Positions 22,174 to 38,854 of a DNA stretch of 56,440 nt are shown here, in pieces. How positions within the stretch are numbered: position 1 is the first letter of the stretch; each line of letters opens with the position of its first letter. Location: assembly GCA_029856145.1 (NCBI GenBank), contig JAHQWK010000005.1, forward strand, positions 1 to 56,440. Direction: 5' to 3'. The notes under the pieces are model-generated. The model searched no databases and was not told where the DNA came from. It was given only the letters and a program-made list of their open reading frames with translations. This DNA comes from Promethearchaeia archaeon. Its GTDB lineage: Archaea > Asgardarchaeota > Lokiarchaeia > Sigyniarchaeales > SOKP01. The position numbers and the translations under genes were made by a program.

Positions 22174-22635
22174 TTATAATATTCCTCTTAACTTTTGATC
22201 AATAGTTTGCGTATCGGTTCCAAAGATTGTATCAATAGATTGTTTGAAATCTTTAAATTGCGATACCTCAGATAAATTTTTACCTGTATTTAAAGATTTA
22301 AATTCTTTTAATACTTGTTTCAATAATGGTTGAATGACTTTATGAATGTATCTTTCTATTTTTTTCTCTTTATCTAATATAGCATAAGAGATTAGAAGTT
22401 CAGGCTCTATGCTATCTTCACTTGTTATTTTATCTTCAGTGAATGTAATAAGAAATTTTTTTCCTTCAAAATATTCTATAATATCCTCTGAAAAAGTAGA
22501 TTGAGCAAAATTTAAAAATGCGGTAAGAAGCCCACTTCTTAAGTCTGTATCAATTTTTCCTAATGATGTTTTGTGGTAACTTTTTTTTACTAAAGTAAAT
22601 CCTCTGAATAATACCCCAGCTTCTCTAACAACCAT
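22174..22635 (-). CDS. Longin-like domain protein
   Basis: DTDLRSGLLTAFLNFAQSTF longin helix; paralogue of 2017..2478. Confidence 0.7.
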   Translation of the reverse strand: MVVREAGVLFRGFTLVKKSYHKTSLGKIDTDLRSGLLTAFLNFAQSTFSEDIIEYFEGKKFLITFTEDKITSEDSIEPELLISYAILDKEKKIERYIHKVIQPLLKQVLKEFKSLNTGKNLSEVSQFKDFKQSIDTIFGTDTQTIDQKLRGIL

Positions 22636-25177: not shown

Positions 25178-25315
25178 GTAAATATTTAATACGAGTCGTT
25201 ATTATTAATATAAAATAATAACAAATAAAAATAAATAAAAAAATAATATTGTATACTTTTGAATTATATTACATAATAACAGATTTAAATGAAATAATTC
25301 AACGAAGTGATTTAA

Positions 25316-25855
25316 ATGGGAAAAGATGACGTTACTAAAGGATTCGTATTTAAGATTACTGTAATAGGAGATGGAGCTGTAGGGAAGACTTCCTTAATTA
25401 AAAAATATACTCAAGGTAGCTTCCAAAAAGATTATATTAAGACCCTAGGCGCCCAATTCTCGAAATATGATGAAGAAATGGAGGGAGATAATTGTAAATT
25501 ATTCTTTTGGGATATTGCTGGACAACGGGAATTTGATTTCATGCGTCCCACATTTTACAAGGGTAGTAAAGCTGCAATCATAGTATTCTCCCATACTGAT
25601 GAAGATAGTTTTAATCATATAACAGATTGGCATGAAGATATTAAAAAATATACTGGGGATCTCCCAATTGTATTATTTGGTAATAAAACAGATTTAATTG
25701 ATGAAAAGGATTTAGATGACGAAATTATAATTGATATAGTTAAAGATAGCAATTTCCTTGGCTATTACAAGACATCTGCTAAAACAGGAAGCGGTGTTTA
25801 CGAAGCATTCCAAGCAATTATAAAAAAATTATATTACAAATACAAAGAAGAATAG
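25316..25855 (+). CDS. Rab-like small GTPase
   Basis: GDGAVGKT, TLG, WDIAGQ, GNKTD, TSAK. Confidence 0.95.
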   Translation: MGKDDVTKGFVFKITVIGDGAVGKTSLIKKYTQGSFQKDYIKTLGAQFSKYDEEMEGDNCKLFFWDIAGQREFDFMRPTFYKGSKAAIIVFSHTDEDSFNHITDWHEDIKKYTGDLPIVLFGNKTDLIDEKDLDDEIIIDIVKDSNFLGYYKTSAKTGSGVYEAFQAIIKKLYYKYKEE

Positions 25856-25858
25856 AAA

Positions 25859-26158
25859 ATGTATGAAGATATCAACCAAGGATATCCAAAGATTTTATTT
25901 TTTTCGTCAAATCATTGCGCACCTTGCATCCCAGTGGAAGAAAAGCTAAAGAGAATAAATATTTCACTATTCGGAAAAAAATTAAGAATTGAAAAAATCT
26001 CAATTGATTTGGAAGAAAATCGTCAGTTAACACAAGAGTATCGTATTTCATCAGTTCCCACATTAATTATAGCAGATAAGAGATTATCAGTAAATATACA
26101 AGAAGAAGAAATTATCGATGCGATACTTTATGCGTTTATATCTTCAGTCAAAATATAA
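25859..26158 (+). CDS. Thioredoxin-like protein (CAPC)
   Basis: FFSSNHCAPC and cis-Pro motif ISSVPTL; starts 3 nt after the GTPase stop. Confidence 0.85.
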   Translation: MYEDINQGYPKILFFSSNHCAPCIPVEEKLKRINISLFGKKLRIEKISIDLEENRQLTQEYRISSVPTLIIADKRLSVNIQEEEIIDAILYAFISSVKI

Positions 26159-26209
26159 ATTTACATAAATAAAAAAAATGTATAATAAAAATAAAAAAAG
26201 AAGTGAAAT

Positions 26210-26692
26210 TTGATGGATAGGCAATTACTCTCCAAAATTCTCGCTCAAATGAAAAAAAATTTAAGAGAGGGCAAAAACATCGGAGATATGAAAGTTGGTG
26301 CTTTATTAGCTTTAGGACACCAATTAGAAGCAATCTTTTACTATTTAGGCCATGAACTAGGAACAAACTTAAAAATTAAGCCCGTTAAGGAGATATCTCA
26401 AGTTCCAGATGAAATAAACCGAATTATTACTGAGTTTAATCTTGGAAAAGTTGAGATCACTGAAAGTACAGAAGAGATAGTACAGCTAAAATTAAAGGAC
26501 CATTCATCCATAAAAGATTTAATCAAAAAAGGAATTAGGACATCAGGAAGTTTTTGTTCATTTGAAGCAGGGTTATTAGCAGGAGTTGTAGAGAAATTAA
26601 GTGATCGTCATTGTTTTGCTCAAGAAATTGGATGTAGTTTACAAACCGGCGAGAATTATTGTACTTTCATGATTGTGTTTCAGAAAGATTAA
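26210..26692 (+). CDS. V4R domain protein (Bet3/TRAPP-related fold)
   Basis: FYYLGHELG, FNLGKV, FCSFEAGLLAGVVE, EIGC...GENYCTF. Confidence 0.88.
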   Translation: MMDRQLLSKILAQMKKNLREGKNIGDMKVGALLALGHQLEAIFYYLGHELGTNLKIKPVKEISQVPDEINRIITEFNLGKVEITESTEEIVQLKLKDHSSIKDLIKKGIRTSGSFCSFEAGLLAGVVEKLSDRHCFAQEIGCSLQTGENYCTFMIVFQKD

Positions 26693-26901
26693 TAAGATTA
26701 ATTAAATATTTTTTCTTATCCATTTTTTATATAAAGTATTAAACCACATGAAGTCCTATACATAATAATAATGTGGATGTAAAAATTTATTCAAGTTTGA
26801 TTCAATAAGAAATTAAATAATCAAAAATAAATTAAATAAAAATTATCAATATATTATCTCATAAAATTTAAATCAAAATTACTCAGAAAAGGTTTTTCAG
26901 A

Positions 26902-27429
26902 TTGGAACCTAGTTATATAATTAAGATTTGTTTGCTTGGGGAAGCAAATGTGGGGAAGACATCACTTGTATATAGATTTATTGAGAATAAATTTAGAGAA
27001 AATTATAAATCCACACTTGGTGTAAACCTTTTAAAGAAGGATATGAGTATTGCAGATTATGGTAGTGCTTCTGCTCAGATTTGGGATCTAGGGGGCCAAG
27101 AATCCTTTAAATCTCTTAGAAAGTTATATTTAGAGGGAGCTAATGGCGCATTGTTGGTTTATGATATGACTAGCAAGAAAAGCTTTGAAAAACTTGGTGA
27201 ATGGATACAAAGTTTTAGAGATGCTAGGGATGATGCTCCTATAATGTTAATAGGAAACAAATCTGATTTAAAAAAGCAAATTAAAATAACTGAAAATAAA
27301 TCCTCGGAATATGCTAAAGCAAATGATATGTCTTTAACTATAACTTCAGCTAAAACTGGTCGAAATGTTGAAGAGGCTTTTATACAATTAACTAAACGTA
27401 TTTTAGATCAGATCTCAGAAGATTCTTAA
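26902..27429 (+). CDS. Rab-like small GTPase
   Basis: GEANVGKT, STLGV, WDLGGQESF, GNKSD, TSAK. Confidence 0.95.
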   Translation: MEPSYIIKICLLGEANVGKTSLVYRFIENKFRENYKSTLGVNLLKKDMSIADYGSASAQIWDLGGQESFKSLRKLYLEGANGALLVYDMTSKKSFEKLGEWIQSFRDARDDAPIMLIGNKSDLKKQIKITENKSSEYAKANDMSLTITSAKTGRNVEEAFIQLTKRILDQISEDS

Positions 27430-27639: not shown

Positions 27640-28326
27640 ATGTCAGATGAAGAAATTGAAGATGAGTTAGTAGAAGAAGAAGAGAAAGAAGAAAAATCTA
27701 AAGGGAAAGAAGTGGAAGGAGAATACGATTATAAAACAGACTTAGATTATAAAATAGAAAACGTTGTAGCAACAGTTGTGGTGGAAATAACAGAGAAAAT
27801 AGATCTTAATCAGATTGCAAGACGCCATGCAGATGTAGAATATAACCCAGAACGTTTTCCCGGCCTTGTAATGCGAATTGAAAAACCTCGCGCTACTATT
27901 TTGATATTTTCTACCGGAAAAATGGTAGTTACTGGTCTTAGACAAGCATCAGAAGCAGAAAGAGTTGTTGATAAGGTTGTTAAAAATATTAGAAAAGCAG
28001 GAATAAAAGTAGCTAATCCAGAAATTACTATTCAAAATATTGTAGCTTCAGGTGATCTCCATACAAATATCGATCTAAATATGGCAGCAATTGTCATGGA
28101 ATATGCTATGTATGAACCAGAAGTATTCCCCGGTTTAATTTATCGGATGCAAGATCCAAAAACAGTATTTCTAATTTTTTCGACGGGAAGAATTGTGTGT
28201 ACAGGTGCAAAACGAAAAGAAATAGTTAGAGATGCGGTCTTAAAGTTGAACCAACAAGTTAGAGAATTAGGTGTAGCAAAAAAGGATATTGGAGATTCAG
28301 AATATCAAGATATTACTTTTATCTAA
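27640..28326 (+). CDS. tbp: TATA-box-binding protein
   Basis: Two repeats: YNPERFPGLV...LIFSTGKMVVTG and YEPEVFPGLIYR...LIFSTGRIVCTGA; acidic N-terminal extension. Confidence 0.98.
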   Translation: MSDEEIEDELVEEEEKEEKSKGKEVEGEYDYKTDLDYKIENVVATVVVEITEKIDLNQIARRHADVEYNPERFPGLVMRIEKPRATILIFSTGKMVVTGLRQASEAERVVDKVVKNIRKAGIKVANPEITIQNIVASGDLHTNIDLNMAAIVMEYAMYEPEVFPGLIYRMQDPKTVFLIFSTGRIVCTGAKRKEIVRDAVLKLNQQVRELGVAKKDIGDSEYQDITFI

Positions 28327-36006: not shown

Positions 36007-36561
36007 TTAAATCTCTACACCATGGTTGTTCAAGATTTGATTTACTAGAAGTATAAAAGCTTCTTCAATATTTTCTCCCAGTTTTGCACTTGTTTCAATA
36101 AAGTGGCTAGCTTTGATTTTTTGGGCTATTTTTTTACCTCTCTCTTGTGTTACTGTCCTTTGGTCTGTTAAATCTGATTTATTGCCAATTAATATATATG
36201 CTCCCTCTTTCTTAACATATTTTTTGAAATCTCGTAACCATTTGGAATTTATGCTATCAAAAGTGCTATAGCGAGTAACATCATAAACCAGTAAAGCACC
36301 TTGACATCCCTGAAAATACATACTGCGAACAACTCGGTACTTTTCTTGACCTGCTAGATCCCACATTATAAGTCGAACTTTTGTGCTATTCAAGTTTACA
36401 TCTTTACGAACAATGTTTGCTCCTAGCGTAGGTTTGTAGTCCTCGTTAAATGAGCCTTCTACAAATTGATTTATCAAAGATGTCTTACCTACAGCAGCAT
36501 CTCCTAAAATAACTACTTTGTATACGAATTCTCGATCGAGATTAGCATCTTCGATTATCAT
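36007..36561 (-). CDS. Rab-like small GTPase
   Basis: GDAAVGKT, PTLG, WDLAGQEKY, GNKSD, ETSAK. Confidence 0.95.
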   Translation of the reverse strand: MIIEDANLDREFVYKVVILGDAAVGKTSLINQFVEGSFNEDYKPTLGANIVRKDVNLNSTKVRLIMWDLAGQEKYRVVRSMYFQGCQGALLVYDVTRYSTFDSINSKWLRDFKKYVKKEGAYILIGNKSDLTDQRTVTQERGKKIAQKIKASHFIETSAKLGENIEEAFILLVNQILNNHGVEI

Positions 36562-36688
36562 TGTGCAATTTAATATTTTGTTGTAGGTCTATTTAATACT
36601 TTTTTCATTTTTTTATAAAAAATTATATTAATGTCTAAATGGATTTCTTATATTACTTCAATTATATAACTTAATTTTCGTTTTTAAC

Positions 36689-37255
36689 TTATTTAATACT
36701 TTTGTCAATTTTTAATTTAACTATGAAACTATTATGTTGGGGATCTTTTATGTCATCTATATCTCTCTCATAAATAACTTTATGTTCTGATGGTAAGGAT
36801 TTTTGTAATGAATTAACTAAAAATCCTTTAAACAAATCACAAGGAACTCCAATCTCAGAACAAAAGATACATCGATCGACACTTATAAACATTTCATTTT
36901 CGTTATTTTCTCTAATACTAACCTTCCAATCTGCTATAATTGAAGAATTTATTTCATCAATAATTTCTTCAAAACTTTTTCCAAATGGAAATAAATAAAA
37001 TGAGAATTTCTTACCAATTTCAAAAAGGAGATCAGAGGAATCATATAATAAACAATTTTGAGCAGATATGATTTTTTTAAAAGAAAAAAAGTCTAATGTA
37101 TCATTAGGGTTTTTATCTCTTATATCCTTTATGTGTATCATTCCTGCTTCTTTTAAGATAGATTTCATCCCATCATAATCAAGGATATCGTGATAGGCTT
37201 GAAGAAGCGCCACAATAACTTTATTTTTTACAAACCCTTTATAATCTCCAATCAT
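36689..37255 (-). CDS. V4R/H-NOX-fold-like protein
   Basis: DIL..DGMKSILKEAG, FEIGKKF, DRCIFCSE...PCDLFKGFL match the V4R Cys pattern. Confidence 0.7.
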   Translation of the reverse strand: MIGDYKGFVKNKVIVALLQAYHDILDYDGMKSILKEAGMIHIKDIRDKNPNDTLDFFSFKKIISAQNCLLYDSSDLLFEIGKKFSFYLFPFGKSFEEIIDEINSSIIADWKVSIRENNENEMFISVDRCIFCSEIGVPCDLFKGFLVNSLQKSLPSEHKVIYERDIDDIKDPQHNSFIVKLKIDKSIK

Positions 37256-37294
37256 TTCTGTCTAATTCGATACCTTACTTTTTATAATAATTTA

Positions 37295-37855
37295 TTAATT
37301 TCTTTCGAATTTAACTCCACTTTTCTTTAATATATACAAAACTAATTTTTTAAACGCTTCCTCAACGTTTTCCCCATATTTTGCACTTGTTTCTATAAAC
37401 TCTGCAGCATCAATCTTTTGAGATAATGATTTTCCTTCTTCGGATGATACTTTAATTGAATCTTTTAAATCTAATTTGTTACCTATTAATATATAAACTC
37501 CATCAGGCCTGCTAAATTTTTTAAAATCCTCAAGCCATTTTATTGTTATCTGTTCAAATGTTGAATAACGTGTTATATCATAAACTAGAAGTGCTCCGAC
37601 ACAACCCTGAAAAAAATTTTGACGTGTTAATTCATATTTATCCTGACCGGCTATATCCCATAAGAGCAAACGAATTTTGGAGTTTATTTCGTCAATTCTT
37701 ATATCCTTTGATACTATGTTTACACCTAGAGTTGGCGTGTAACTTTCTTTAAAGGAATTAGTAATATATTTATCAATTAAGGATGTTTTCCCTACTGCAG
37801 GATCTCCTAATATTGCCAACTTTAATGCCCATTCTCTATTCTTATTATATACCAT
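37295..37855 (-). CDS. Rab-like small GTPase
   Basis: GDPAVGKT, PTLG, WDIAGQDKY, GNKLD, ETSAK. Confidence 0.95.
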   Translation of the reverse strand: MVYNKNREWALKLAILGDPAVGKTSLIDKYITNSFKESYTPTLGVNIVSKDIRIDEINSKIRLLLWDIAGQDKYELTRQNFFQGCVGALLVYDITRYSTFEQITIKWLEDFKKFSRPDGVYILIGNKLDLKDSIKVSSEEGKSLSQKIDAAEFIETSAKYGENVEEAFKKLVLYILKKSGVKFERN

Positions 37856-37872
37856 TAAATCTCAACCCATTT

Positions 37873-38307
37873 TCATAAATCTAAAAGCGATAAATTAAAT
37901 TGAGGATCCTCAGCGCGACTTAATTCTTGATCAATTTCCAATATTTTAACTTCACCTGTAACGGATATTATGCTTGGTTGGCTTAGATGTCCTCCTATTA
38001 CAGAATAATCACTTCTTCCTAAAGTTACATGTAAGTGAATTATTGGCTCTTTACCTTTATATGTTATATTTCCTATGCAACTAATTAATTCTACGTATTC
38101 ATTAAAAGTTTCCATTTTGTAATTTTTGGAATCAATATCATAAAAACCGATTGTAAATTTTTTTAATGCACCAATACAGTTGATTAATCCAGATTTGATA
38201 TTATATTGTTTAACTAAGTCAATGATTGAGTTTATTAAATCTTCATTAGGTTCAACTTTCCCGAAAATAATGCGTTTAGATCTAGTTTCGATACTTTTCA
38301 TTTTCAT
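37873..38307 (-). CDS. PPC (DUF296) domain protein
   Basis: IGAL, ELISCIGNI, HLHVTLG, GGHL, TGEV. Confidence 0.92.
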   Translation of the reverse strand: MKMKSIETRSKRIIFGKVEPNEDLINSIIDLVKQYNIKSGLINCIGALKKFTIGFYDIDSKNYKMETFNEYVELISCIGNITYKGKEPIIHLHVTLGRSDYSVIGGHLSQPSIISVTGEVKILEIDQELSRAEDPQFNLSLLDL

Positions 38308-38317
38308 TTAAATTTTA

Positions 38318-38854
38318 TTAAACTTTAATTCCTTCATTCCTTAATATTTGAAAGACTAATTTTTCAAAAGCTTTTTCTACATTTTCTCCGTATTTCGCAC
38401 TCGTTTCAACAAGGTCACTTGCGTCTATTTTATCTGCAAGTGCTCTTCCCTCCTCATTGGATACTGTTCTAGAATCTTGTAAGTCAATTTTATTTCCTAT
38501 TAAAACATAAGCTAAATCTTTTTCTCCATATTCATTTAGATCTTCTAACCATTTAGATTCAATATTTTTAAATGTAGCATGTCTGGTTATATCATATATA
38601 AATAATGCCCCTACTACACCTTGAAAAAACATTTTTCGCGAAAGATCATATTTTTCTTGACCAGAAATATCCCAAATAACTAACCGGATTTGATTATGTT
38701 CTGTTTCTAATTCTTTCACACAGATTGAAACGCCTAATGTGGGCTTGTAATCTTCTTTAAATTGGTGATGAGCATACATATTGATCAGAGAGGTTTTACC
38801 AACCGCGCTATCTCCTAATAAAACAAGCTTCAGAACAATGATGTTGTCAGACAT
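38318..38854 (-). CDS. Rab-like small GTPase
   Basis: GDSAVGKT, PTLG, WDISGQEKY, GNKID, ETSAK. Confidence 0.95.
   Translation of the reverse strand: MSDNIIVLKLVLLGDSAVGKTSLINMYAHHQFKEDYKPTLGVSICVKELETEHNQIRLVIWDISGQEKYDLSRKMFFQGVVGALFIYDITRHATFKNIESKWLEDLNEYGEKDLAYVLIGNKIDLQDSRTVSNEEGRALADKIDASDLVETSAKYGENVEKAFEKLVFQILRNEGIKV

Follow-up and report, generated by a model that had tools for sequence, protein, structure and literature searches.

The window analysed here, a stretch of 56,440 nucleotides (nt) from Promethearchaeia archaeon (Lokiarchaeia; GenBank assembly GCA_029856145.1, contig JAHQWK010000005.1, forward strand), contains an operon of three genes encoding a Rab-like small GTPase (GTPase-1), a small thioredoxin-fold protein, and a stand-alone V4R-fold protein. 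This operon is real, conserved, and built from known parts, and it is apparently undescribed; the literature searched yielded no published account of a GTPase-1/thioredoxin/V4R operon. The three genes likely form a functional module that includes GTPase-1. Tentatively, and with a little less than even confidence, we propose that the V4R protein senses thiol/zinc state (or a ligand), is reset by the thioredoxin, and signals through GTPase-1. Judged from sequence, the module would vary the theme of thioredoxin/V4R sensors, its candidate output being a small GTPase.

All three genes lie on the forward strand. GTPase-1 (25316..25855; 179 amino acids [aa]) is identified by its Pfam Ras match (148 bits), alignments, and a tree. 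The thioredoxin gene (25859..26158; 99 aa; active-site motif CAPC) begins 3 nt later and is assigned by a Thioredoxin_2 match (33 bits), an alignment, a tree, and the fusion-thioredoxin profile described below. The V4R gene (26213..26692), whose product has a predicted zinc site, is assigned by a structure model, a fold search, and conservation; its open reading frame (ORF) starts at 26210 or 26213, the product having 159 aa counted from the ATG. A second Rab-like GTPase gene, GTPase-2 (26902..27429, forward strand; 175 aa; Ras, 163 bits), lies downstream. An earlier, sequence-only reading of the window had described these four ORFs as a co-oriented cluster, with which the coordinates and the Pfam matches agree.

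That the linkage recurs in other genomes was borne out by a synteny survey of 107 loci, all of them related, some from the same genome, and hence not independent. The thioredoxin gene adjoins the V4R gene in 106 of the 107, and GTPase-1 lies upstream and co-oriented in 99 of the 101 loci testable for it. Since the neighbourhood of ~10 kb is entirely syntenic in 80 close loci of the window's family, the close loci alone prove little. The three-gene order is, however, kept across the order: it holds across Lokiarchaeia, including both cultured species (Promethearchaeum syntrophicum and Lokiarchaeum ossiferum), and in the sister family and in distant records the trio persists though the flanks differ. 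At two distant loci (L259 and L260), GTPase-1 and the thioredoxin overlap by 4 nt amid unrelated neighbours. In the order, the thioredoxin and V4R genes are single-copy and distributed alike, being found together in 64/68 and 7/7 genomes.

The source genome has 85 Ras-family matches, and a single GTPase gene beside another gene is therefore unremarkable in itself (4.3% of the other ORFs adjoin one); the GTPase-thioredoxin-V4R arrangement exceeds chance. Background synteny is nonetheless high. As a sister-family genome and the source genome keep 17 of 29 adjacent ortholog pairs and 4 of 11 triples, the synteny evidence for membership of GTPase-1 is good, not overwhelming, and that for GTPase-2 is weak. 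We regard as highly improbable the explanation that the genes are functionally unrelated and kept together by gene-order inertia: the syntenic neighbourhood in the family, the high pair and triple baseline, and the abundance of GTPase genes would all fit it, but the trio is retained, with overlapping genes, where all flanks differ, and the same two domains are fused into one protein elsewhere.

The conserved unit is thus GTPase-1, thioredoxin, and V4R. GTPase-2 is no fixed fourth member because a wide gap (209 nt) separates it from V4R, a T-tract follows the V4R stop (about 26709..26718, forward strand; possibly an archaeal terminator that separates GTPase-2), and GTPase-2 moves or inverts with the gene for TATA-binding protein (TBP) in relatives. 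In 86 loci it is found directly downstream (48), inverted with TBP (22), upstream (5), farther downstream (4), or absent from the locus (7). GTPase-2 and TBP invert as a block in one genus, and in three relatives (L066, L068, L078) the TBP gene is duplicated in tandem beside the inverted GTPase-2. A rule that GTPase-2 always travels with TBP is ruled out by MK-D1 and L. ossiferum, in which it stands upstream of GTPase-1; P. syntrophicum (CP042905.2) and L. ossiferum have the order GTPase-2, GTPase-1, thioredoxin, V4R, AsnC-type gene. By comparison of loci and by tree, GTPase-2 is a loose neighbour from another clade and would be at most a secondary partner; its mobility makes it doubtful that V4R regulates both neighbouring GTPases, as had been suggested. 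The window's own TBP gene (27640..28326, forward strand), named from its sequence, is mentioned for context only.

A fusion protein found in other Asgard families supports the thioredoxin-V4R partnership independently of synteny. Outside Lokiarchaeia, the best matches to the operon thioredoxin are mostly the N-termini of proteins of ~490 aa with the architecture thioredoxin-V4R-V4R; a KaiC domain, considered for these relatives, proved to be wrong. The fusion occurs in 84 of 301 Asgard genomes, from 10 families, and is absent from all 75 genomes of the two families, both Lokiarchaeial, that have the thioredoxin and V4R as separate genes. The best match in the source genome to a profile of the fusion thioredoxin is the operon thioredoxin (59.5 bits; next, 41.4), and the best match to the fusion-V4R profile is the operon V4R (38.9 bits; next, 23.7). 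Profile-profile probabilities are 99.6% for the two thioredoxins and, by hhalign, 98.8% (147 columns) for the operon V4R against the C-terminal V4R half of the fusion. We read the operon pair as the unfused counterpart of the fusion, consisting of a thioredoxin and a V4R homodimer, whether it arose by descent or convergently. The data do not support a simple split of the fusion, as the two V4R halves of the fusion group together (100/99); the tree rejects neither the fusion nor the Thorarchaeal (Thor) proteins as sister of the operon V4R, and apart from the clades stated here the V4R and thioredoxin trees lack resolution.

At 6 of 8 loci in family f16, a gene for a Rab-like GTPase comes next after the fusion gene in the same orientation; that GTPase lies outside the GTPase-1 clade. 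After these two genes comes one for a protein of 110-127 aa with a basic N-terminus and coiled-coil-like matches (L237-L243). In family f21, a run of four adjacent genes of ~425-430 aa (L114:7360-12671), at least two with V4R matches and one of these with a tandem V4R, adjoins genes that by eye resemble those for heterodisulfide reductase.

The operon thioredoxin keeps its presumptive active site. C20 and C23 (C20-A-P-C23) and the cis-proline P67 are invariant in 23/23 orthologs, as is a surface motif away from CxxC in sequence (N34/S36/F38/G39/L42/I44/K46), and the C-terminal helix is present. It is not a canonical thioredoxin: it reads HCAPC rather than WCxPC, scores 28.6 against 96.8 bits with TIGR01068, and falls outside the canonical clade (94/96). 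In the tree, it belongs to an unresolved group with thioredoxins from signalling contexts, which are fused to V4R, lie inside PAS-histidine kinases, stand beside KaiC ATPases, or form part of GTPase strings (L093 and L227); the same type thus follows GTPase genes in two more families. At L093:5524-9325, from another Asgard family, the string is Mrp/NBP35, Rab-like GTPase, roadblock, thioredoxin, KaiC, KaiC. At L227:1050-2386, a GTPase gene precedes two overlapping thioredoxin-fold genes, one without CxxC, opposite which lies a gene that by eye resembles that for the catalytic subunit of ferredoxin-thioredoxin reductase. In family f29 (L095:3240-5246, L096, L097), this thioredoxin type is inserted among the PAS domains of histidine kinases. 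Elsewhere in the source genome, a thioredoxin-reductase-like gene (312 bits, slightly below the cut-off) accompanies three protein-disulfide-oxidoreductase-like genes (C9:31152-34252), a possible source of electrons.

The V4R protein matches PF02830 at 25.2 bits, below the curated cut-off of 31, and most of its homologs carry PF02830 in precomputed hits; its closest relatives (71-93% identity) are mostly labelled Promethearchaeota. With its structure model (predicted local distance difference test score [pLDDT] 90.7), a fold search returned PoxR (Z 15.0; root-mean-square deviation [rmsd] 3.4, 136 aligned), DmpR (Z 14.2), and MJ1460 (Z 14.1), and on the TRAPP side TRAPPC3 (Z 12.2; rmsd 3.3, 130 aligned) and Thor-type TRAPPC3 (Z 11.8; rmsd 3.4, 134 aligned). 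As modelled, the operon protein appears to have the V4R fold and to be a stand-alone sensor of the PoxR/MsvR type. Every one of the 101 homologs has C115 and E118; E138 is found in 98, C141 and C150 in 96 each, and C134 is nearly invariant; C115/E138/C141/C150 form, as a sequence pattern, the Cys/Glu/Cys/Cys set of zinc ligands. Six cysteines, including a C97-x-x-C100 pair lost in the window's lineage, are present in 71 of the 101.

The best NCBIfam match of V4R is the MsvR family (NF053755; E 1e-10, residues 30-154), in the C-terminal part of MsvR. The protein is not itself an MsvR, having 159 aa, no helix-turn-helix (HTH) match, and 41.6 bits against a cut-off of 220. Spacing and the hidden Markov model match, rather than a direct alignment, place C115 and the positions +19, +26, and +35 from it opposite MsvR C206 and its +19, +26, and +34 (C225/C232/C240). 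In MsvR, C206A abolishes redox control (PMC3729527), and the Methanosarcina acetivorans protein is re-reduced by the thioredoxin system, as related second-hand in PMC7278568 (citing Sheehan 2015).

The sequence-only reading had proposed that the V4R protein, as a relative of Bet3, is a forerunner of TRAPP-Rab signalling. The shared Bet3-superfamily fold was upheld by the match to TRAPPC3, and the forerunner was not: there is no match to PF04051, the protein is nearer in fold and profile to V4R sensors and the fusion, and no longin gene was identified in the unit. PF04051 matches no protein of the source genome, none of 40 genomes in the window's family, and none of three in the sister family, and it matches all 43 genomes of family f9, the carrier of Thor-type TRAPPC3 proteins. 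Pfam matches neither of the two nearby genes on the opposite strand, at 22174 and 29086 (they were not folded). On present evidence, the operon V4R appears not to be a TRAPP exchange factor or its forerunner. We consider it very unlikely that, as a Bet3-like proto-TRAPP subunit, V4R serves the flanking Rab-like GTPases as their exchange factor. In its favour are the common fold (Z ~12 to TRAPPC3), a Foldseek ranking in which Bet3 and MopR matches interleave, the enrichment of V4R-fold genes beside GTPase genes, and trees without eukaryotic sequences in which V4R and Thor-type TRAPPC3, though not grouped in the best trees, can be grouped without rejection (approximately unbiased test, p 0.40). 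It is opposed by the missing PF04051 match and a profile probability of only 18% to the Thor-type proteins, by a V4R-type zinc site that is kept here and replaced in mouse TRAPPC3 (PMC10933270), by the catalytic site of TRAPP being formed by, and needing, the longin pair TRAPPC1/C4 (PMC8204870), by the mobility of GTPase-2, and by the GTPases themselves, neither of which ends in Cys and which thus lack the C-terminal prenylation cysteines of eukaryotic Rabs.

The mechanism that we tentatively favour would run as follows. GTPase-1, thioredoxin, and V4R, observed to be linked, would be co-transcribed as one operon, and the V4R protein, like its relatives, would be a homodimer with bound zinc. 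Oxidation or ligand binding would change the state of its Cys/zinc site and cavity, and the dedicated thioredoxin, given the fusion and the MsvR precedent, would dock on V4R and re-reduce it. The state of V4R and thioredoxin would then be passed to GTPase-1, as a regulator or effector, by protein contact, the least supported step. Both GTPases have the motifs G1-G5; the orthologs of GTPase-1 form their own clade (100/99), and GTPase-2 falls in another. In the ortholog alignment, the switch regions of GTPase-1 are nearly invariant and it has no invariant Cys, which makes control by protein contact more likely than thiol modification; direct thiol modification of GTPase-1 was set aside for want of such a cysteine. 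The stronger claim, that in Lokiarchaeia the nucleotide state of a Rab-like GTPase is under the direct control of a V4R dimer gated by its own thioredoxin, we think unlikely.

Several observations weigh against the favoured mechanism. GTPase-1 has no invariant cysteine, and six of its paralogs in the source genome have no thioredoxin or V4R neighbours. Background synteny is high; one locus (L085) has GTPase-1 divergent from the thioredoxin, and another (L106) has V4R standing apart. At 30 fusion loci from six other families, there is no GTPase gene within 1.5 kb, and the clade of the two fusion V4R halves excludes the operon V4R. The V4R cysteine pattern varies among homologs, MsvR C225A is without effect (PMC3729527), and the cysteines are compatible with a purely structural zinc site, as in DmpR (PMC7264223) and Thor-type TRAPPC3 (PMC10933270).

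There are two further accounts. In one, the thioredoxin and V4R are a true sensor pair, GTPase-1 is merely co-expressed, and the output lies elsewhere, for example in the Lrp/AsnC ligand-binding protein of the sister family. We judge this unlikely. It is favoured by the usual lack of a GTPase neighbour for the fusion, by the divergent GTPase-1 of L085, by the background synteny, and by a stand-alone AsnC-type gene (82-90 aa) 3' of V4R in family f2, MK-D1, and L. ossiferum; but in distant loci, where the neighbours are new, GTPase-1 and the thioredoxin overlap; in the window's family the cluster has no AsnC gene; and f16 again shows a GTPase link. The sister-family AsnC-type genes after V4R, those of both cultured species among them, are at L082-L088, L257:6503-6751, and L258:6686-6931.

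In the other account, V4R is a sensor of small ligands with a structural zinc, the thioredoxin fold is an adaptor between V4R and GTPase-1 (as the thioredoxin-fold partners of KaiC may be), and thiol chemistry is secondary. This seems to us quite unlikely. Its support comes from the nearest folds, which are phenol sensors; from the proposal of Tran et al. (2024) that Asgard V4R/TRAPPC3 proteins bind ligands (PMC10933270); from the presence of the thioredoxin type beside KaiC ATPases and inside histidine kinases, with one copy having lost CxxC (L227); and from the invariant surface motif away from CxxC. The invariance of C20, C23, and P67 in all 23 orthologs, and the retention of CxxC in the fusion proteins, count against it.

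V4R-fold genes recur beside GTPases in the source genome. Of its four V4R/H-NOX-superfamily genes, three adjoin GTPase genes, against the 4.3% baseline: the operon V4R, C11:114104, and positions 36689-37255 of the window. The last of these belongs to an array (36007-38854) of GTPase, PPC, GTPase, the H-NOX/V4R-fold gene, and GTPase; its 188-aa product is modelled best as H-NOX-like (Z 10.7) and contains a CxxC..C motif, and a GTPase gene stands beside it in 24/24 loci. The second V4R gene lies directly 3' of a gene for a 332-aa GTPase (L081:8105-9853; C11:114104-115852 in the source genome), an adjacency seen in 23 of 24 loci.

Within the operon, a Shine-Dalgarno-like GAAGTGA lies 5' of GTPase-1 (25304..25310, forward strand) and another 5' of V4R (26200..26206, forward strand), both read from the sequence and putatively functional. 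A sigma-70 promoter scan of the locus gave about chance level, the sigma-70 model being ill-suited to archaea. The public RNA runs consisted of contigs, most of them probably DNA, and their coverage was patchy.

The genes of relatives carry short inserts. Fifteen loci have inserts of 29-39 nt that break the frame or add a stop; ten of these loci have them in GTPase-1, at three sites, and five in V4R, at a single site. Excision at bulge-helix-bulge positions restores the conserved sequence, as expected of tRNA-type introns. In GTPase-1, inserts are present in L003, L010, L047, and L055 (29 nt), in L031, L037, L040, L046, and L051 (30 nt), and in L121 (30 nt); two of the sites are just 5' of the P-loop and one is within the DxxG motif. 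The V4R inserts, in-frame with a stop, lie between codons A33 and L34 in L102-L105 (39 nt) and L106 (30 nt), with 3 of 4 pairs in the central helix. Minimum-energy folds of the intron regions have the bulge-helix-bulge shape only in part. All four sites lie in the operon, which makes up ~20% of the scanned DNA. The neighbouring genes yielded no convincing insert (the scan for frameshifting inserts left out TBP and cdc48), and there is none in GTPase-1 or V4R of the window itself. Orthologs of the other two V4R-fold genes have single internal stops (G144, G040, G129, G165), which may reflect further introns. In the literature covered, bulge-helix-bulge splicing of coding sequences is confirmed for cbf5 only (PMC2738675).

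Asgard archaea have dozens of Rab-like GTPases and almost no assigned regulators. In MK-D1, GTPase genes do not as a rule share operons with roadblock, longin, or TRAPPC3 genes (Tran et al. 2024; PMC10933270), which makes their partners hard to predict. Here, the operon points to one GTPase together with a sensor and a reductant; the three proteins are small and soluble and occur in both cultured Lokiarchaeia, so the pairing is directly testable. The MK-D1 ortholog of V4R (WP_147663616.1, DSAG12_02516) is a different protein from the two of MK-D1 that Tran et al. modelled in their Fig. 9 (PMC10933270). Should the test turn out positive, redox or ligand sensing would be linked with GTPase signalling in eukaryotes' closest relatives, and the Bet3 fold would gain a plausible role before TRAPP; a negative outcome would leave an ordinary archaeal sensor pair. 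If the thioredoxin-gated V4R dimer does control the nucleotide state of GTPase-1, Asgard Rab-like GTPases would have in it their first assigned regulator, and the coupling of the V4R/Bet3 fold to small GTPases, repeated within Asgard archaea, would predate longin-based TRAPP.

Among known systems, PoxR/MopR/DmpR and MJ1460 offer the closest folds, and the zinc ligands of DmpR (C151, E172, C177, C185; PMC7264223) match the V4R pattern; the Lokiarchaeial protein differs in being stand-alone, without a sigma54 ATPase, at 12-27% identity, and with extra cysteines. TRAPPC3/Bet3 and Thorarchaeal TRAPPC3 (7YH2/7YH3) have the superfamily fold in common with it (Z 11.8-12.2), and the C97-x-x-C100 of relatives resembles the Thor-type CxxC, whereas the operon V4R lacks their PF04051 match and no longin partner was identified in its unit. 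MsvR (NF053755), which combines a winged HTH with V4R, likewise has an archaeal V4R domain, four cysteines of matching spacing, and thioredoxin as reductant; the Lokiarchaeial V4R, by contrast, has no DNA-binding domain, is accompanied by a dedicated thioredoxin in its operon, and has as its candidate output a small GTPase rather than a promoter. The Asgard thioredoxin-V4R-V4R fusions, uncharacterised and annotated only as V4R domain-containing, have the same domain types in the same order and a distribution complementary to that of the separate pair, and they differ in being a single chain with two V4R copies that group together and in having a GTPase neighbour as a rule in one family only.

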